From contig CAZHEA010000004.1 of the NCBI GenBank assembly GCA_964531165.1, positions 24,476 through 88,475 on the forward strand: DNA of 64,000 nt, written 5' to 3'. How positions within the stretch are numbered: position 1 is the first letter of the stretch; the number at the start of each line of letters is the position of its first letter. A program made the translations under genes and the position numbers. Under the pieces are notes generated by a model. The model was given only the letters and a program-made list of their open reading frames with translations, had not been told where the DNA came from and did not search any database. Below, piece after piece: positions 397 to 28,040 of the stretch. This DNA comes from an uncultured Thiotrichaceae bacterium. GTDB taxonomy: Bacteria > Pseudomonadota > Gammaproteobacteria > SZUA-229.

Positions 397-1638
397 ATGC
401 AAAATAAAACAATCAAAACTTCAGAACAACAATCAGCAGAGTTTAATACTGTAATGAATGTCTCATCAAAAAGGCAATGGCCAGTTGTTGTTGCTATTTT
501 AATGTCGGCATTATTTATTGCCTTTTTATTAACGGCATTTAAACCGCAGGCCGAAAAAAAAGCCATTAAAAGTTCGCCGCCGCAAGCGGAATATATTGTT
601 GCGCATAGTCAGTTAATGGCGGTGCCGGTTGTATCTCAGGGCAGTGTTAAAGCCAAAACTAGAATTAAACTGGTTGCTGAAGTGAGTGGTCGTATTACGC
701 AGATGGCGAAGCTGAAATTTAATGGTGGTTTTTTTAAAAATGACGAGTTGCTTTTAAGTATCGATGATACGGATTATCGACTTGCTATGAGCCGCGCTAA
801 AGCGCAGGTAGCGGCAGCACAACAGCAACTGGTTAAAGTTGAGATAGAAGCCGGCCAGGCTGAATATGATTTGCAACAAATAGGTCGAGACCCATCTAAA
901 TCCAGTGCTTATGCCTTGCGCAAACCACAGCTGGCGGAGGCCCGGGCAAGTTTGCAGGCTGCGCAGGCAGACCTGCAAATTGCGCGGCTAAAAATGCAAC
1001 GTACACGAGTTGTTGCGCCGTTTGCAGGACGGGTGGCGAGTAAGCAGGTGGATATCGGTCAGTATGTCAGTGCCGGTACCTTACTGGCTGATATTTATTC
1101 TACTGAAACGGTCACGGTACGTTTACCATTAAGTTTGCAGCAGACTGAATTGCTGGGTATTAAACTACGCCAAAATAAAAACCCGGCTGAAGCAGTTAGT
1201 ATTCGTTTGTTTTCTGAGTATGCCGAAAAAAAATATCAATGGAATGCTGTTTTTAGTCATACTGAAGGTGAACTGGATTTGCGTAATCGACTGGTTTATC
1301 TTGTTGCTGATGTGAATGAGCCTTATGCCAGTGACTCACAATTTCCCAATCGTCCACCATTAACACCGGGTATGTTTGTAAAGGCCGAATTGCGCGGACA
1401 GAAAAAAACATTATTTAAATTGCCCCGATCTGTTCTGCGATTTAACAATCATGTGTGGCTGGTTGATGCTCAAAATAAGTTGAAAATAATGCCGGTAACT
1501 GTGCTCACTAAAGATCGTGATTCGGTGTATATCAATCGTGGGCTGCAACAGGGTGATAGAGTTATTGTAAATGCCATTGATTTTCCGCTGAATGATATGT
1601 TGTTGTCTGCATCTGCATTAAAAGTCGATAATGAATAA
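397..1638 (+). CDS. RND efflux periplasmic adaptor (membrane fusion protein)
   Basis: N-terminal TM, EVSGRI lipoyl half, alpha-hairpin, RTRVVAPFAGRV, LTPGMFV; overlaps downstream RND permease. Confidence 0.9.
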   Translation: MQNKTIKTSEQQSAEFNTVMNVSSKRQWPVVVAILMSALFIAFLLTAFKPQAEKKAIKSSPPQAEYIVAHSQLMAVPVVSQGSVKAKTRIKLVAEVSGRITQMAKLKFNGGFFKNDELLLSIDDTDYRLAMSRAKAQVAAAQQQLVKVEIEAGQAEYDLQQIGRDPSKSSAYALRKPQLAEARASLQAAQADLQIARLKMQRTRVVAPFAGRVASKQVDIGQYVSAGTLLADIYSTETVTVRLPLSLQQTELLGIKLRQNKNPAEAVSIRLFSEYAEKKYQWNAVFSHTEGELDLRNRLVYLVADVNEPYASDSQFPNRPPLTPGMFVKAELRGQKKTLFKLPRSVLRFNNHVWLVDAQNKLKIMPVTVLTKDRDSVYINRGLQQGDRVIVNAIDFPLNDMLLSASALKVDNE

Positions 1639-4600
1639 GTTAATAGCCTGGTTTGCAGAAAATCAGGTGGCTGCCAATCTGGTAATGCTGTTGATTGTAG
1701 TGGCCGGCTTATTATCATTACAGACGACCCGTAAAGAATTAATCCCCAATATTTCATTAGATAAAGTTAGTATCAGTGTAGCCTTCCCCGGTGCATCACC
1801 GAAAGAAGTTGAGAGGACAATATGCATTCGAATTGAAGAAAATATATTTGATATTGAAGGCATTCGTAAATTAACCAGTCGGGCATCTGAAGGTGTATGT
1901 AGTGTTATTGCGAGCATTGAGTCGAGTTATCATTCGCGTGAAATCATGGATGAAATTAAATCGCGAATTGATACTATCTCGACTTTTCCTGAGCAGGCTG
2001 AACGCGCGTTAATACGTGAAATCAGTATTAAAAGTAGTGTCGCCAGTGTTGTTGTATCGGGTAATGCGGATGAGCGAACGCTGAAATATATTGCCCAAAA
2101 CGTACGTGATGAGTTAACAGAAATAAAAGGTATTACACAGGTTAAGCTGGTTAATGCCAGAAATTATGAACTTTCAATTGAATTATCTGAAAGTAGTTTA
2201 CATGAGTATGATTTAAATTTTGATGAGGTAGCTGGTGCGGTGCGTGTGGCTTCTCTGGATTTGCCCGCTGGGCGTTTAAAAACCAGCAGTGGTGATGTGT
2301 TGCTACGCACGCAGGCACAGGCCTACACCGGCGAAGAATACGAACAGTTAACCTTGCGGGCAAATGCTGATGGTAGTTCAATTAAACTGGCGGATGTGGC
2401 CACCATTATTGATGGTTTCGAGGATGTAGAGTTCAGCGGTGAATTCAATGGCAAGCCCGGGTTATTGATTACGGTTTACCGGGTGGGTGAACAAAATATT
2501 TTAGGAATTTCGGATAGCATAAAGCAATATATTGAAGAAAAGTCACCACAGTTACCCCATGGCATTGAATTAAATATCTGGCAGGATAAATCCAGTTATT
2601 TTAAGAGTCGTATGTATTTATTGATTCGCAATGCGATGACCGGTCTGTTGTTAGTGTTTTTAATTCTGGTGTTGTTCCTGCGTTTACGTCTGGCTTTCTG
2701 GGTAAGCCTGGGTATTCCGATTTCATTTATGGGCGCTTTCTGGCTATTGCCGCATGTTGATGGTTCCATCAATATGATTTCGATGTTTGGCTTTATTCTG
2801 GTGTTGGGAATTGTGGTGGATGATGCCATTGTGGTAGGGGAAAATATTCATAAGCACCATCTTCGAGGCAACCTGGGTTTAAAGGGGGCTATAGATGGTG
2901 CGCAGGAGGTTTCCAAGCCGGTAATATTTGCGGTGTTAACCAGCGTAGTGGCATTTATGCCTATCTTATTTCTGCCGGGTGCAGAAGGTCGTTTATGGAT
3001 GGTGATTCCGCAGGTGGTGATATTAACGCTGTTGTTTTCATTAGCTGAATGTTTATTTGTGTTGCCGGCACATTTAGCGCGGATTAAAACCCATGAGCAA
3101 AAAGAAAATCGTTTTACCCGTTTCCAGTCGGGTTTTTCAGACTGGTTGGATAATTTTATTGATACGGTTTATCGACCGACATTATTAAAAGTACTGAATT
3201 TTCGTTATATTACTTTATCGGCTTTTGTCGGTTTATTTATTGTTTTTGTGACGGTGCTGTATGCGGGCTGGATACATCTTCTGTTTTTCCCGAAAGTTGA
3301 AGGGGATATTGCTATTGCCAGTGTGAGTTTTTCGCAGGGCTCAAGCGTTGTTAAAACTGAGCAGGCGGTGGACAGAATTGAGGCAGCCGCATTGCAGCTT
3401 AAACAACAGTTAAAATTACGCACCGGTGTTGAGCAGATTGAAAATATTATTTCTACTGTTGGCATTCAGGCAATGAATCGCAGCGGTAAAAAAGGCGATC
3501 ATGTGGGTGAGGTCTCACTGGCTTTGCGGGCATCAGAGAAGCGTGAAATTGATAGCGCGGAAATATTGAAATTATGGCGGCAGGCGGTGGGGCAAATTCC
3601 GGCGGCGACACAGCTGACATATCAGTCGAGCATTCGCGATTCCGGGCCGGATATCAGTATTGATTTAACCGCACGCAACCCTGAAGTGTTATTGGCTGCA
3701 GCAAGAGAATTAAAAAAACAGTTGCAACAATATAACGGTGTTTATGATATTCAGGACAGTTTTGATGCGGGTAAGAAAGAGATTCGCTTACACCTGAAAC
3801 CAGCCGCTGAGCATTTAGGGATAAACGCTAAGCTGCTGGCACGACAGGTGCGACAGGCTTTTTATGGTGAAGAAGTACAACGTATACAGCGCGGGCGGGA
3901 TGATGTGAGGGTATTTGTGCGTTATCCTAAAGGCCAGCGCCAGTCGGTATATTTTTTAGAGAGCATGTTTATTCATCTGGATAATGGTGTTGATGTGCCA
4001 TTAACTGAAGTCGCTAATATAGAGTACAGTGCCAGCCCGGCAGAAATTTTACGTATTGATCGAAAGCGAGTGATTACGGTGAGTGCGCGGGTTGATCAAA
4101 GTATAGGCGTACCGGCGCAGATTAAGCAGAGCCTGAATGTTGATTTTCTTAATCGAATAGCAAAGCAGTTTAATGGCGTGAAGTGGAGCCTCTCCGGTAG
4201 TCAGAAAGATCAGGGTGACATGATCAGCTCGATGATTCGCGGGTTTATACTGGCTCTGATTGGTATTTATGCATTGATGGCGATTCCATTTAAATCCTAT
4301 ACACAGCCATTAATGGTGATGAGTGCGATTCCGTTTGGCCTTATTGGTGCGCTGCTAGGGCATATGTTATTGGGGCTGGATATTAGTCTGCTTTCACTGA
4401 GCGGCATGATCGCGGTTGCTGGGGTGGTGGTGAATGATAACCTGGTGCTGGTCGACTATATTAATCGTAAGCGTGAACAGGGGGTGGAGCTCAGTCTGGC
4501 GATTCGTGAGGCTGGCGCCGCTCGCTTTCGGCCAATTGTGTTAACGTCTCTGACAACGTTTGCTGGCTTAACACCGCTGATGCTTGAGCGCAGTGTGCAG

Positions 4601-5470: not shown

Positions 5471-6391
5471 ATGTCTAAGAAACATCCTGTTATTGCGGTT
5501 ACCGGTGCAAGTGGTGCAGGTACCACAGTTGTACAACAGGCATTCAAAGAAATTTTTTTCCGCCAGAAAATTAATGCCGCCTTTATTCAGGGTGATGGCT
5601 TTCTTCGTTATAACGAAACTGAAAGTGAAGCGTATATTTCTCAACAACTGGCCAAAAAACGCCATATTAGTTGTTATGGTCCCGACCTCAATGATTTTGC
5701 AAAATTACAGAGTTGTTTTCAGCAATATTCTGAAAATGGTAACTGTGATATGCGCTGTAAAGTGACATTAGAAAATCAGCATCTGCATAATGCTTCGATA
5801 GGTGAATTCACCCCATGGTTGCCTGGGCCTGATGATTCAGACTGCTTGTTTTATGAAGGAATGCATGGTGGTGTGGCGGCACAAACCTGGACCAGACGTA
5901 AATCTGAAAATGCCTCAGCTATTTTAAACGACAGGCGCAAGGCGAATGCCAATGGTGTAAATGCAGAACAGTATGTTGATTTGTTAATTGGTGTGGTTCC
6001 AGCCATTAATCTGGAATGGATTCAACGTATTAATCATGATCGTGTTAATCGTAAACAGTCTGCTGAGCAGGTGACGCAGAAAATTCTTGAGCAACTTCAG
6101 GATTATATTCATTTTATCGTGCCACAGTTTTCGGTTACGGATATTAATTTTCAGCGTGTGCCGGTGGTTGATACATCAAATCCGTTTGATTCTCAGCCGG
6201 TACCAACTGAAAAAGAAAGTATCGTTGTCATCAGTTTCAAAGAGCCGGAAAAGTACGATCTGGAAGATTATAAAGCGCGTATCGCCGGTGCTTTTGTATC
6301 AGGGCGAAAAAATCTAGTCGTGCCCGGAGGTAAAATGAGTCATGCACTGGATGTGATTTGTGCGCCATTAATAGAAGCACTGATTAAATGA
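5471..6391 (+). CDS. Phosphoribulokinase-family protein, divergent paralogue
   Basis: MSKKHPVIAVTGASGAGTT P-loop, YEGMHGG, INLEWIQ, DINFQRVPVVDTSNPF match proteobacterial PRK; several substrate residues replaced. Confidence 0.85.
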   Translation: MSKKHPVIAVTGASGAGTTVVQQAFKEIFFRQKINAAFIQGDGFLRYNETESEAYISQQLAKKRHISCYGPDLNDFAKLQSCFQQYSENGNCDMRCKVTLENQHLHNASIGEFTPWLPGPDDSDCLFYEGMHGGVAAQTWTRRKSENASAILNDRRKANANGVNAEQYVDLLIGVVPAINLEWIQRINHDRVNRKQSAEQVTQKILEQLQDYIHFIVPQFSVTDINFQRVPVVDTSNPFDSQPVPTEKESIVVISFKEPEKYDLEDYKARIAGAFVSGRKNLVVPGGKMSHALDVICAPLIEALIK

Positions 6392-23900: not shown

Positions 23901-24287
23901 GTGCCATCTTCTCAGCTATTGTCCATTGTCGAAATCGGCGGCTATCCAAATTTTACGGCGTTGTACCAGCAAAAAGGTTTTGCGGTAGAGCAGGTGGACA
24001 GCATGCGTAAGGCGACTAAACTACTGAAAAAGTTGAAGCCGTCTGTGGTAGTCGCGGAGTTTAATTTTCAGTCGGATTTTCGTGACCGCACCAGCAGTCT
24101 GGAAACCCTTATGGCGACGGTGCAGCGTATTCCTGATTGCCGGGTGATTGTGTTTTATGAAAAAGACCAGTTGCCGCAACTGCAGCGGGTGCTGGCGATA
24201 TTCGATATTTTTTCCACCATTGCTTTCCCGATTGAAGAGTCGGTGATAAGTGATGTGATAGATAGTGCGTTGGAGTCGATTGCATGA
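23901..24287 (+). CDS. Hypothetical protein, atypical receiver-like fold
   Basis: beta/alpha pattern KPSVVVAEF with Glu at the usual phospho-Asp position; stop overlaps next start (ATGA). Confidence 0.75.
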   Translation: MPSSQLLSIVEIGGYPNFTALYQQKGFAVEQVDSMRKATKLLKKLKPSVVVAEFNFQSDFRDRTSSLETLMATVQRIPDCRVIVFYEKDQLPQLQRVLAIFDIFSTIAFPIEESVISDVIDSALESIA

Positions 24288-24970
24288 GTGTAGAAATGTT
24301 GTTTTCAAAGCTGCCGGGATGCCGTGAGCGCTTGTTAAAGCGGCAGTTTGAAAATCCTTTATTCGGTGACATTACCATTGAGCCCTTTGATATTCAGGAT
24401 GCTCGCCGTGAAGATTCGGCAGATGTGGAAGCCTTTATTAATGATTTTCGTGATTTGGTGGTACGGGTAACCGAGCTGGAACCCAGCGCAGATGCGGAGT
24501 TGGTGCTAAAACTCAAAGAAGCGCTGGATAAAACCTACGAAGCCAGCGCCGGGTTAGCGGGTGATCAAAACGAAATTCGCGAAATGATAAAACGCCTGCT
24601 AGGCATGATGATGCAAAGCATGTGGAAAGCAGTCGGCAATGATGCCATGGGCATCTCCAAACTGGAAATGGAAGAGCAGGCACGACAGGCGCATTTTGCT
24701 TTATTACAGCACGCTTTTATTGCCGATTTACTGGCCCCGGACAGTGTGATTAATGAGGCGCTGATGGTGCCCAGTCTGTTGAGTGAGGCCGCCGAAACGG
24801 TGATTCTGGCAGTGCAATTGTTCGATCCGGAACAACAGCAACTGGTGTATCAGCAGGGTGTTGAGCTATTGAAAGGGCTGGATGATGCGCACCCGCGGGT
24901 ACAGCAAGCCCGGCAACGTTTGCAGGATATTGCCAGCGTAATGGCACCAGCGAACCAGCAGCCGGGTTAA
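24284..24970 (+). CDS. Hypothetical alpha-helical protein
   Basis: 228 aa ORF coupled to upstream gene; PGCRERLLKRQFENPLF N-terminus. Confidence 0.8.
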   Translation: MSVEMLFSKLPGCRERLLKRQFENPLFGDITIEPFDIQDARREDSADVEAFINDFRDLVVRVTELEPSADAELVLKLKEALDKTYEASAGLAGDQNEIREMIKRLLGMMMQSMWKAVGNDAMGISKLEMEEQARQAHFALLQHAFIADLLAPDSVINEALMVPSLLSEAAETVILAVQLFDPEQQQLVYQQGVELLKGLDDAHPRVQQARQRLQDIASVMAPANQQPG

Positions 24971-25043
24971 GCAGGGTTGGAAAAAACCTAAATCACCTCC
25001 ATATTGAAGCAGATAATCAGTTACACAATTTAGAGAAAGTATT

Positions 25044-25748
25044 ATGAAAGACTCAGGCATAAGACCCGAAACAGGCATTTTAGAATCATCCACCGATGAA
25101 GAGGCGCGCGCTTATTTAGAAGAGCAGCTGCGTAATCACCAGTTTGAATTAACCCAGTTGGCCCGCGATGCAGACCCGATTGACGTAGCAAAAGTTAAAA
25201 TGGATATTGCCAACGCGCAGTTGGGCTTAGAGCAAAATGAGAATGCCTGGAACGAATCGAAAGCTGCCTTTGAGGCGTTTATTGAAAAAGAAGATTGGGC
25301 CAGTGCCATCGAAGCTTGCGATATTATGTATCAATGCGAGCAACCTGCGTCAATTCAGGCGCTGGTGCACGGGGTGTGGTTATCAGTGACATATCCGGTG
25401 GACCCGGAATACACCATCGGTATGATGAGTTACATTGTTGATGAAACGCCGAATGATTCGGATGGTGCGGCGGTTGCTGCAGCGACTGCCCAGTATATTG
25501 TCGATATTCGTGCCTCGGATGAGAAGCACGATAGTCTGTCGTTCTTAACCAAGAACATGATCACCAAAGTCGCCCAGCGCCACTCGGATGTAAACAGTCA
25601 GGACAAGCTGGATTTCTGGATGGAAAAAATGAATTTGAAAGATCCGGAAAAATTCCTGCCGATGATGGGCTCGGTGATTGACGCGATTGCTAATGGCCAG
25701 TGGTGGTTTGACCGTGATGCGCTGCGCGCCAAGTTGCCGGTGAATTGA
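25044..25748 (+). CDS. Hypothetical acidic helical (TPR-like) protein
   Basis: 234 aa ORF; GVWLSVTYPVDPE and DETP.DSDGAAVAAA blocks. Confidence 0.8.
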   Translation: MKDSGIRPETGILESSTDEEARAYLEEQLRNHQFELTQLARDADPIDVAKVKMDIANAQLGLEQNENAWNESKAAFEAFIEKEDWASAIEACDIMYQCEQPASIQALVHGVWLSVTYPVDPEYTIGMMSYIVDETPNDSDGAAVAAATAQYIVDIRASDEKHDSLSFLTKNMITKVAQRHSDVNSQDKLDFWMEKMNLKDPEKFLPMMGSVIDAIANGQWWFDRDALRAKLPVN

Positions 25749-25776
25749 TTGTGTGAGGCGGGCGGGTGAGAGAGGA

Positions 25777-25856
25777 TTAAATCCCGCCTGGTTTGCCTTT
25801 TTAAAGAGGGGAGCATGTAAACGCCCTCCTGGCAAAAGAGAGGTCAGGGATATTTC
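25777..25856. repeat. Possible decayed CCCC-TTT/AAA-GGGG REP-like pair between convergent genes
   Basis: AAATCCCGCC..CCTTTTTAAAGAGGGGAG and CCCTCCTGGCAAAAGAGAGG..AGGGATATTT in opposing orientation; heavily degenerate. Confidence 0.35.
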
Positions 25857-25884
25857 CCCGGCTCTTTGAATCATTCGTTGTTAT

Positions 25885-26169
25885 TTAGTCTTTATCTTTA
25901 GTCGATTTCAACCCATGCATCTTGACCACATTGGTTTTAGGCTTGTCGCCTTTATATATTGGCCGGTGTAAACTCGGCTTGCCCAGAGCTTCAGATATTT
26001 CTTTCTCGCGGGCAGCGATCAGTAAAAAACCCTTGCGTACATCTTCCATGGTGTTTTCACTTAAAGGGTGCTTCATGCCCGGGTCCGGAGTGATATCGCG
26101 GATCACACTGGAAATGACTTTACGTAGGGTAATTAGTACATCGAGTTCTTTCTTTAAATCGGTTTCCAT
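25885..26169 (-). CDS. Small hypothetical protein
   Basis: RKVISSVIRDITPDPGMKHPLS...IAAREKE; ATG 26169 with AGGA upstream. Confidence 0.75.
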   Translation of the reverse strand: METDLKKELDVLITLRKVISSVIRDITPDPGMKHPLSENTMEDVRKGFLLIAAREKEISEALGKPSLHRPIYKGDKPKTNVVKMHGLKSTKDKD

Positions 26170-26316
26170 AAAAATCCTGTCGGCCTGACCAGTAGGCGTG
26201 ATATTAGCGGGCAAAGTTGCGTTGAATAAATTATAACCTGTATGGGAAGATAATTTACCCTATTATTAGTATTTGCTATAATACTTGACCAGTTTACTAC
26301 GTTATTGTGAGTTCCT

Positions 26317-26556
26317 ATGCCTTATTATGTATATAAAGTCCAATCCGCCGAGCTTGTGATGTTAAAGCAGCTTGATCTAGTGAAAACCTTCGACAAGTTT
26401 AAAGAAGCTAAAAGCTACGCTCGCGATTTGCGTTCCAACCAGGAAGAGATGGATGTCTCTGAAGTGAAGGTGATGTTTGCTGACAACCAGCTGGCTGCCG
26501 AAGAAATGCTGATGGAGAAGCGCGATAAGCCTATTACCATGGAGCATGAAAAGTAG
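26317..26556 (+). CDS. Small hypothetical protein
   Basis: 79 aa; MPYYVYK...FKEAK..AR...VKVMFA.N.L.AEE. Confidence 0.75.
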   Translation: MPYYVYKVQSAELVMLKQLDLVKTFDKFKEAKSYARDLRSNQEEMDVSEVKVMFADNQLAAEEMLMEKRDKPITMEHEK

Positions 26557-26562
26557 CGAAAT

Positions 26563-27027
26563 ATGGATGAAGATAGCTACCGTGAGGTTTATAACCGTAT
26601 TAACACGGCGCCCTGCGTATTTGAAAAAGGTATTCTGTCGCTAAAGTCGCAGTGCTCTTATCAACATAAGTTTCACCTTGCCGACCGTCATTGCGTGGGC
26701 TGTACCGATACGGTGATGCAGATAAACTGCAAGGCGTTTCTCGATCATCTGCGCCAGCAAACCCGCTTTGTCTTTAAGATTAGTATCGACGGGCCGTTGC
26801 CGCATAATAAAGAAATTAAGGTACAAAATGGCGGTATGCAGGGTATGCAGCAAATTTTGTTGAAAAATTCGCACGCCGATGATGTAAATCAATCCCTGCC
26901 GGATATTGCGGCGTTAATGCTGAAATCCATTGAGCGCTATGGGAATATTGAAGCGGTGCCGTATAATTTAATTATGCCCAGTGTGACCAATTATAAAACC
27001 CGCCCGAAGCGACAGAAGAAATCGTAA
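26563..27027 (+). CDS. Hypothetical Cys-containing protein
   Basis: Five Cys in the N-terminal half (PCVFEK, QC, HCVGC, NC); LPHNKEIKVQNGG. Confidence 0.78.
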   Translation: MDEDSYREVYNRINTAPCVFEKGILSLKSQCSYQHKFHLADRHCVGCTDTVMQINCKAFLDHLRQQTRFVFKISIDGPLPHNKEIKVQNGGMQGMQQILLKNSHADDVNQSLPDIAALMLKSIERYGNIEAVPYNLIMPSVTNYKTRPKRQKKS

Positions 27028-27111
27028 TAATTGCCGTATCAGCAGTGCGTAGTTTGCTATAGTTGCAGTGGCAGTGCGGATAAATAAAACTAAATTTAAA
27101 AGAGGAAATTC

Positions 27112-27432
27112 ATGCGTCGAGCAAGAACCGTAGAAGAGTATGTGGCGTGGATAAAAGATGCACTTTATGAGGTGGAAGATATGCGTGCCTCTATTGAATA
27201 TGATGAAGAAGGCATGGGAGCCGCCCGGCCTTACATTGAAGATATAGAGCGCAGCCTGAAAGATATTTTTCAACTGATGGAGTCCGGGGATTATTGCTGG
27301 AATACCGGTGACCTTTCGTATGTGTCTGTTATCCGTGATTTAGATGAAAGTGTGGTGCCGTTTCGCCAGCTGTTAATTCGTATTAATGAAACCCATAAAG
27401 TCGGCCTTGAAACGCAGGACGATCAGGAATAA
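27112..27432 (+). CDS. Small acidic hypothetical protein
   Basis: 106 aa; AGAGGA RBS; PFRQLL.RINETHKVGL. Confidence 0.78.
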   Translation: MRRARTVEEYVAWIKDALYEVEDMRASIEYDEEGMGAARPYIEDIERSLKDIFQLMESGDYCWNTGDLSYVSVIRDLDESVVPFRQLLIRINETHKVGLETQDDQE

Positions 27433-27434
27433 TT

Positions 27435-28040
27435 ATGCCCCATAACAAGGATGAGTTTGAACATAATTCTACCCATAATTCTACAGGGGACAGTCCCTGG
27501 AAAACCCTTAGTACACAACCGGTTTATAATAATGCGTGGATAAAAGTTGAAGAGCATCAGGTTATTAATCCGGGGGGAGGTAATGGTATTTATGGCAAGG
27601 TGAGTTTTAAAAATCAGGCGGTGGGCATTATTCCAGTGGATGATGAAGGCAATACCTGGATTGTTGGTCAGCATCGCTATACATTAAACGAATGGTCGTG
27701 GGAAATCCCCATGGGTGGCTCGCCCATTAAAGAGGATAACGTCAAAACTGCAAAGCGTGAACTCGAAGAGGAAACCGGCTTAATCGCAGGAAAAATAACG
27801 AAACTATTACATCTTCATCCATCAAATTCTATCACCGACGAGCAGGGCTATGTTTTTTTGGCTACTGATTTAAGTGATGGGGTTCAGGCGCTTGAAGATA
27901 CGGAAAAAGATATACAGGTAAAAAAGCTGCCCTTTAATGATGTGGTTGAAATGGCAAAAAACGGTGAAATAACAGATGCTATCAGCGTCGCCGGTATTTT
28001 TTATCTGGCACTTAACTGGGATCAGCTGGTTAATAAATGA
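27435..28040 (+). CDS. Nudix hydrolase, ADP-ribose pyrophosphatase-like
   Basis: WEIPMGG...AKRELEEETG, GEITDAIS. Confidence 0.9.
   Translation: MPHNKDEFEHNSTHNSTGDSPWKTLSTQPVYNNAWIKVEEHQVINPGGGNGIYGKVSFKNQAVGIIPVDDEGNTWIVGQHRYTLNEWSWEIPMGGSPIKEDNVKTAKRELEEETGLIAGKITKLLHLHPSNSITDEQGYVFLATDLSDGVQALEDTEKDIQVKKLPFNDVVEMAKNGEITDAISVAGIFYLALNWDQLVNK

Follow-up and report, generated by a model that had tools for sequence, protein, structure and literature searches.

Seven small adjoining genes of an uncultured Thiotrichaceae bacterium, which lie together at positions 23,901 to 27,432 of a 64,000-nucleotide stretch of contig CAZHEA010000004.1 (the whole of which we call the window), belong to protein families that occur almost exclusively in the dsrA-bearing genomes of our Gammaproteobacteria sample. 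In other lineages three of the families, those of g3 and g1 and a g6-like form (the genes being numbered g1 to g7 in order of position), lie in physical linkage with dsr loci. We hypothesize that the seven are soluble cytoplasmic accessories of reverse Dsr (rDsr) sulfur oxidation, most likely an adaptor or regulatory layer and non-catalytic, and we hold this reading to be probable. Many bacteria and symbionts of environmental importance oxidise their stored sulfur through the Dsr pathway, and both its regulation and the delivery of sulfur to it are still open questions. Seven conserved families that stay below the thresholds of Pfam and NCBIfam and track dsrA near-perfectly over about 60 genome families are of interest as testable candidate accessory factors, and as extra metagenome markers for oxidative-type Dsr metabolism.

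The distribution of the families is the main evidence. The class sample consisted of Gammaproteobacteria only, no family contributing more than two genomes and each genome being 90% complete or better, and was searched with profile alignments made from loci both syntenic and distant: A1 and A8 for g3, A2 (24 sequences) for g1, A3 for g2, A4 for g4, A5 for g5, A6 and A9 for g6, and A7 for g7. Across the larger class sample, the bacterium's own genome included, g3 was found in 70 of 300 scored genomes and dsrA in 92 of 301; among the non-own genomes, g3 was present in 69 of 92 with dsrA and in 0 of 208 lacking it, leaving 23 dsrA-positive genomes without g3. The other six families were searched in a subset of 200 non-own genomes, 61 of them dsrA-positive and 139 dsrA-negative. 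There g4 was present in 53 of the 61 dsrA-positive genomes, g6 in 46, g1, g3 and g5 in 45 each, g7 in 31 and g2 in 28; among the 139 dsrA-negative genomes the count was zero for every family except g5, with one. This sole g5 exception (G136) is a genome that is 90% complete and in 430 contigs, and dsrA is present in another genome of its genus. The profile scores of g2 and g3 were bimodal, without a weak tail. As a control for autotrophy, the RuBisCO large subunit was found in 25 of 68 genomes searched, 11 of those 25 being without dsrA, and none of the seven families occurred in these 11. An earlier note on this DNA, made from the letters of the window, had seen a resemblance of the seven sequences to hypothetical families of reverse-Dsr sulfur oxidisers, and that reading is supported by the class sample, where the families are confined to dsrA-positive genomes (g5 with its one exception). 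Unrelated phyletic patterns, or a failure to co-occur with sulfur-oxidation genes, were looked for and did not occur.

Presence is also patchy: all seven families were found together in 13 of the 61 dsrA-positive genomes and at least five in 39, between 8 and 33 of these genomes lack any given family, and one dsrA-positive genome of 1.1 Mb (G184) carries none of the seven. Given that genome and the patchy presence, an accessory role fits better than a core role.

Physical linkage to dsr genes is clearest for g3. Up to 10 kb on each side of g3 was fetched in 69 g3-positive genomes, and both dsrA and dsrB lie within that distance in 32 of the 69 loci. The TauD-like gene dsrQ stands directly ahead of g3 in 28 loci, a Cas6-like gene (PF09559, with TIGR02807 just above its cut-off) directly after it in 36, and a DsrC-like gene is present in 36, such that the recurrent order is dsrC-H-F-E-B-A, divergent from TauD-like (dsrQ), g3, Cas6-like and DsrC-like genes. 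The name dsrQ for the TauD-like gene divergent from dsrA is that of Lenk et al. 2012, as given in PMC7596348. In 36 of 69 genomes a Cas6 of CRISPR type, with no CRISPR context, is a conserved neighbour of dsrAB.

The loci examined for g1 linkage were six, drawn from six families and chosen because their g1 and dsrA coordinates lie 3.5 to 4.8 kb apart. In all six of these proximity-chosen loci, dsrBA are divergent from dsrQ and the Cas6-like gene, and a convergent g1 relative follows 1 to 2 kb beyond; a DsrC-like gene follows the Cas6-like gene in five. In three loci (L223, L227 and L228; for example L227:6197-6907) the g1 relatives flanking the dsrQ unit are followed by a conserved open reading frame (ORF) of 223 to 236 amino acids; homology of this frame to g2 was considered and is not detectable (hhalign probability 0.08%). 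The link for g6 comes from one locus, L217, in which a 132-amino-acid g6-like gene (a paralogue) stands directly after dsrR. No dsr linkage was seen for g2, g4, g5 or g7 in the loci examined.

In the bacterium's own genome, 297 bases separate dsrQ from the Cas6-like gene with no g3 between them, and g3 is found in the window instead. A quick tree of g3 places the 28 sequences that are not dsr-linked, the window's included, on one side of a branch with an SH-aLRT value of 92 (below the mark of 95), a topology compatible with, but no proof of, g3 having left the dsr locus once.

That genome itself carries the Dsr pathway. It is 3.58 Mb long, in 186 contigs, and 94.9% complete, with the window on contig 4; soxB is present, and neither dsrA nor dsrB was found. 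The dsrA miss is an assembly break, because contig C24 opens within dsrK and runs on through dsrL, J, O, P, N and R, and contig C39 breaks off 0.5 kb upstream of dsrQ, which is followed there by a Cas6/Cmx6-like and then a DsrC-like gene (L218:9168-11771). The C39 end with this dsrQ trio probably joins the missing dsrAB. Across 41 genomes (40 relatives and the own genome) dsrA scored over its cut-off in 23, most of the own family among them. After dsrR, both the own genome (L219:8487-11039) and L217 (7497-10294) continue with a histidine kinase (HisKA_3), a NarL-type response regulator and a rhodanese, and in L032 (7257-8480) the regulator and rhodanese adjoin the dsrQ unit. Since the kinase and the NarL-type regulator follow dsrR in both genomes, these dsr loci carry signalling genes of their own, and the kinase-regulator-rhodanese set may be a two-component system dedicated to dsr. 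A VgrG-like gene (Phage_GPD, Phage_base_V) lies about 0.5 kb past the rhodanese of the trio (L219:11515-13257), and dsrL on C24 (L219:1387-3512) is read in two overlapping frames, 1387-1737 and 1575-3512, which indicates a frameshift or a sequencing error.

As a block, the seven genes are bound to one lineage, and smaller groupings of them recur elsewhere. Next to NUDIX-sucAB the block is syntenic through the own family (f1), and in several relatives inserts of 2 to 3 kb separate g3 from g4; the full set of seven was found only in f1 and in a few unplaced loci of metagenome-assembled genomes (MAGs; for example L070 and L074). In another family (L133), six of the genes fit into 5 kb and are differently ordered (g3-g1-g2-g4, the last of these reversed, and then after an interval g5-g6), which points to re-assembly and not to inheritance of one arrangement. 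Among 40 g6-centred loci, g5 and g6 are adjacent in 20 and g4 is divergent in 8; beyond g5 and g4, the only recurrent neighbours of g6 found were two small clusters, each present in six loci. The neighbourhoods of g4 with divergent g5-g6, and of g1 with g6, recur across families, and g2 stands beside g3 in several. Within the dsrA-positive genomes, pairs of families also co-occur beyond chance, namely g4 with g5 (p=4e-6), g1 with g6 (p=1.5e-4) and g1 with g3 (p=3.5e-4), and likewise g2 with g3 and g3 with g6; these Fisher p-values overstate the case because the genomes are related. Each family has a single copy in the own genome, save for one extra g1 paralogue, and the seven genes sit together in the 3.5-kb block. 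The outcome that would have spoken against the note on this side, that the genes are not clustered elsewhere, thus did not occur, given the recurrence of g4 with g5-g6, of g1-g6, of g2-g3 and of the six-gene cluster in L133.

The g1 paralogue, on contig C35 (L220:8529-9017; E 2.5e-16), is divergent from a gene for an ABC-F ATPase, and ABC-F genes are divergent from g3 too, in two distant loci (L069 and L086).

What the individual proteins look like is consistent with roles outside catalysis. None of the seven reaches a Pfam or NCBIfam cut-off, just as the note had them unannotated, and no enzyme family was matched by any of them in Pfam, NCBIfam or profiles of solved structures; profile searches of solved structures gave nothing significant for A1 to A7. 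Homologues of each gene at E < 1e-10 are found in dozens of other genome families, and the seven are thus more than chance ORFs. Five of the proteins (g1, g2, g3, g5 and g7) are acidic, with isoelectric points (pI) of 4.4 to 5.2, and no hydrophobic stretch was found in any of the seven (maximum Kyte-Doolittle value over 19-residue windows 1.61), nor any N-terminus resembling a signal peptide, in agreement with the note's view that signal peptides and transmembrane segments are lacking. The note had also singled out a pseudo-receiver, an acidic protein resembling tetratricopeptide repeats (TPR) and a cysteine-rich protein; these descriptors fit g1, g3 and g6 respectively, the first by sub-threshold VpsR and Response_reg matches only.

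The forward gene g1 (23901-24287) encodes an acidic, receiver-like protein of 128 amino acids, likely a pseudo-receiver. Its receiver matches score under the curated cut-offs: VpsR (PF20161) at 22.5 bits against a cut-off of 23.7, and Response_reg (PF00072) at 16.2 against 30.2. Weak VpsR hits occur in 7 of the 24 members of A2 and weak Response_reg hits in 3. The family has an invariant motif, E-F-N-x-Q-x-x-F-R-D-R, and in a weak hhalign alignment (probability 1.7%) with the genome's own NarL-type regulator an invariant glutamate, Glu53, falls at the position of the phospho-acceptor aspartate. With single-domain receivers and pseudo-receivers (the CheY-like fold, the N-terminal domain of VpsR), g1 shares its size and this weak sequence signal, and the own dsr cluster ends in two-component genes, the histidine kinase and NarL-type regulator; from true receivers it differs in its sub-cut-off scores and, in the weak alignment, in the invariant Glu that stands for the acceptor Asp.

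In the forward gene g3 (25044-25748; 234 amino acids, pI 4.4) a C-terminal WWFDRD motif is conserved. Its AlphaFold2 model is confident (pLDDT 94.4) and shows eleven helices in a TPR-like fold of stacked helix-turn-helix repeats. The top rows of a Foldseek search with the model are TPR or other helical-repeat proteins, weakly matched (best E 0.018), and VIA-align placed residues 12-195 on LGN/Pins, kinesin light chain, BtubC and Rap/PlcR with Z of 10-13.5, values that are common for helical repeats. To TPR adaptors (LGN/Pins, kinesin light chain, Rap/PlcR and LapB) g3 aligned over 150-180 residues at Z 10-13.5, with a root-mean-square deviation of 3-5 A; it differs from them in having no TPR sequence-family match (none in Pfam at E <= 0.1) and in the conserved WWFDRD, which is without a counterpart there. 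A profile search of PDB with g3 returned only Rap phosphatase J, at E 0.31.

The forward gene g6 (26563-27027) encodes a basic protein (154 amino acids, pI 9.1) with a basic tail and five cysteines; four of these (C18, C31, C47 and C56) never vary in either of the alignments compared, of 22 and of 59 sequences, and at the level of sequence it shares four conserved cysteines with Cys4 proteins that bind metals or clusters. Its model (pLDDT 92.9) found no match in PDB (Foldseek best E 0.28, VIA best Z 3.8) and may represent a new fold. The family comprises 682 representative clusters, and among the 150 matches listed nearly all are stand-alone proteins of about 135-170 amino acids; no fused forms were found at 285-2000 amino acids, which is weak evidence, and a 416-amino-acid frame in L206 has no Pfam domain. 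A kinship of g6 with g2 was tried, and profile comparison shows the two to be unrelated.

The reverse gene g4, basic (pI 9.4), spans 25885-26214 as an ORF of 109 amino acids and more likely 25885-26169 as a gene of 94, because its homologues begin at Met16 of the ORF. NCBI names relatives of g4 'segregation and condensation protein A', and the Protein Atlas returned only the family's own clusters under the automatic name 'ScpA'. ScpA proper is far longer than the proteins of this family, most of whose listed members have 91-103 amino acids. Identity with ScpA is unsupported, neither g4 nor 17 family members matching any Pfam or NCBIfam family, and the name looks like a propagated mislabel, to judge from these sequences. 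The remaining genes, all forward, are g2 (24284-24970; 228 amino acids, acidic, without a known family), g5 (26317-26556; 79 amino acids, beginning MPYYVY and terminating MEHEK, a near-constant partner of g6 on its upstream side) and g7 (27112-27432; 106 amino acids, acidic). Profile searches of solved structures gave no lead for these three, nor did the Protein Atlas return a usable hit with g2.

The usual place of g3 is in the unit divergent from dsrAB; in the bacterium's own lineage it has left that unit and is found with the other six families. If the seven are regulators or adaptors, the TPR-like g3 would be the scaffold of the layer, and g1 a receiver-like protein with Glu in place of the phospho-acceptor Asp; g4 and g6, as small basic proteins, could bind nucleic acid or metal, and g2, g5 and g7 would be small acidic partners. 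Together they would tune or assemble the Dsr machinery according to cytoplasmic sulfur or redox state, outside the catalytic core. We favour a non-catalytic accessory role because of the TPR-like and receiver-like folds, the small charged proteins, the absence of all seven from a reduced dsrA-positive genome and their variable presence. A more specific version, which we consider unlikely as it stands, would make g4 and divergent g5-g6 a novel cysteine-based sensor of cytoplasmic sulfane sulfur, its fold having no relative among solved structures; with the pseudo-receiver g1 and the TPR adaptor g3, this sensor would link the supply of globule sulfur to how DsrAB, DsrC and the DsrQ/Cas6-like unit are expressed or assembled. 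A complex prediction for g6 with g5 scored 0.00, which weighs neither for nor against binding.

The main rival is that the proteins are assembly or sulfur-trafficking factors and not regulators, which we think rather doubtful. Under it g3 would scaffold the DsrC-like, DsrQ and Cas6-like proteins, and the cysteines of g6 would carry a metal, an Fe-S cluster or a persulfide toward DsrEFH, DsrC and DsrAB. The encoding of g3 between dsrQ and the Cas6-like gene, the DsrC-like gene in 36 of 69 g3 loci, the invariant cysteines of g6 in 59 sequences, the g6-like gene directly after the IscA-like dsrR of L217 and the rhodanese genes close to dsr loci all suit such factors; however, none of the seven has a match among sulfurtransferase, Fe-S assembly or chaperone families, and their absence from the 1.1-Mb dsrA-positive genome, along with the absence of each from 8 to 33 of the 61 dsrA-positive genomes, would be odd for obligatory maturation factors. 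The null explanation, that the seven are functionally unrelated lineage genes whose match to dsrA is common descent and whose block is inherited synteny, seems to us quite improbable, although several observations lean its way and some of them weigh at the same time against an adaptor layer. The full block, with its synteny to NUDIX-sucAB, hardly extends beyond f1, the inserts split it in several relatives, and the seven genes lie dispersed in the majority of genomes; at 15 distant loci, g3 has unrelated housekeeping neighbours that vary (Glu_synthase-like, UbiE-type methyltransferase, ABC-F, ApbE, DUF2058, DUF502 and MutH). Among dsrA-positive genomes g7 is unassociated with the other six (p 0.25 to 1.0), and its coupling in the window is to a NUDIX gene. 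The genomes are kin, and hence non-independent samples whose co-occurrence counts overstate independence, and the pattern could partly reflect the shared ancestry of sulfur-oxidising lineages. Further points bear on the adaptor layer itself. Three other genomes of the own family that have the block, G003 (90% complete), G009 (93%) and G013 (100%), gave no dsrA match. The receiver-like call for g1 depends on scores under threshold and on an hhalign match whose probability is 1.7%, and the adaptor or regulatory mechanism is one that we infer from fold, charge and distribution only.

Common descent would nonetheless have to account for six families in 0 of 139 dsrA-negative genomes and g5 in 1 of 139, with none in the 11 RuBisCO-positive dsrA-negative ones; for the many separate families in which g3, g1 or a g6-like gene adjoins dsr genes; for six of the seven clustered in another order in another family; and for a 3.58-Mb genome whose seven dsr-restricted families all fall within 3.5 kb. 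The notion of unrelated housekeeping hypotheticals kept together by synteny was overturned by the dsrA co-occurrence and the dsr linkage. Of the multi-protein accessory system for cytoplasmic sulfur oxidation that the note had proposed, the accessory link is thus borne out by the dsrA pattern and the dsr linkage, and the word system is unproven, the genes being scattered and g7 unassociated; to the note's other suggestion, globule mobilisation, nothing points.

Two sets of known dsr accessory genes invite comparison with the seven as members of an adaptor or regulatory layer. DsrR and DsrS of Allochromatium vinosum are products of promoter-distal accessory genes, with reported roles in post-transcriptional control. 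They resemble the seven in being small soluble non-catalytic proteins confined to Dsr-type sulfur oxidisers, and in L217 a g6-like gene fills the slot directly after dsrR, which is suggestive by position only. DsrR differs in being IscA-like (Fe-S_biosyn), a family matched by none of the seven. The dsr cluster of A. vinosum, as named in PMC3368242, is dsrABEFHCMKLJOPNRS. The other set, dsrQ with the Cas6-like and DsrC-like genes, is like the seven families an uncharacterised dsr-linked accessory set; g3 itself is a member of it in other lineages (dsrQ, g3, Cas6-like), and g1 relatives flank it. It differs in that g1, g2 and g4 to g7 are not members, and in that the own genome has its dsrQ, Cas6-like and DsrC-like genes on a different contig, where g3 does not accompany them. 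In the literature searched, so far as its accessible main text extends, no account of the seven families was found and only dsrQ is named.

The layout of the block that the note had given, seven ORFs in units of three forward, one reverse and three forward with short or overlapping joints, is exact in its coordinates, the start of g4 (Met16) alone being amended. The overlap of g1 and g2 is 4 bases, the gap from g5 to g6 is 6 bases, and g7 stops 2 bases ahead of the NUDIX gene at 27435. The divergent spacer between g4 and g5, 147 bases long, contains the best promoter-like site of the region (26254-26282, forward strand; 10/12 with a TG extension), as judged by a consensus scan in which the count of promoter-like sites in the region was not above that of shuffles. 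The same kind of scan picked out a terminator-like hairpin just downstream of g4 (25845-25860, reverse strand), which is not evidence of function.

No mobile-element domain was found within or beside the block, as the note had also observed. Upstream of it lie a TRAP transporter, a TetR gene and two hypotheticals, and downstream two NUDIX genes, sucAB-lpd and sucCD. A phosphoribulokinase-family gene is present at 5471-6391 of the window, and no RuBisCO large subunit was matched in the 94.9%-complete own genome. Between 37000 and 47000 of the window the G+C content falls to 0.35-0.40; this stretch encodes a receiver protein, a CHASE8 histidine kinase, a REC-GGDEF-EAL protein and two methyltransferases, and may be an acquired signalling island.

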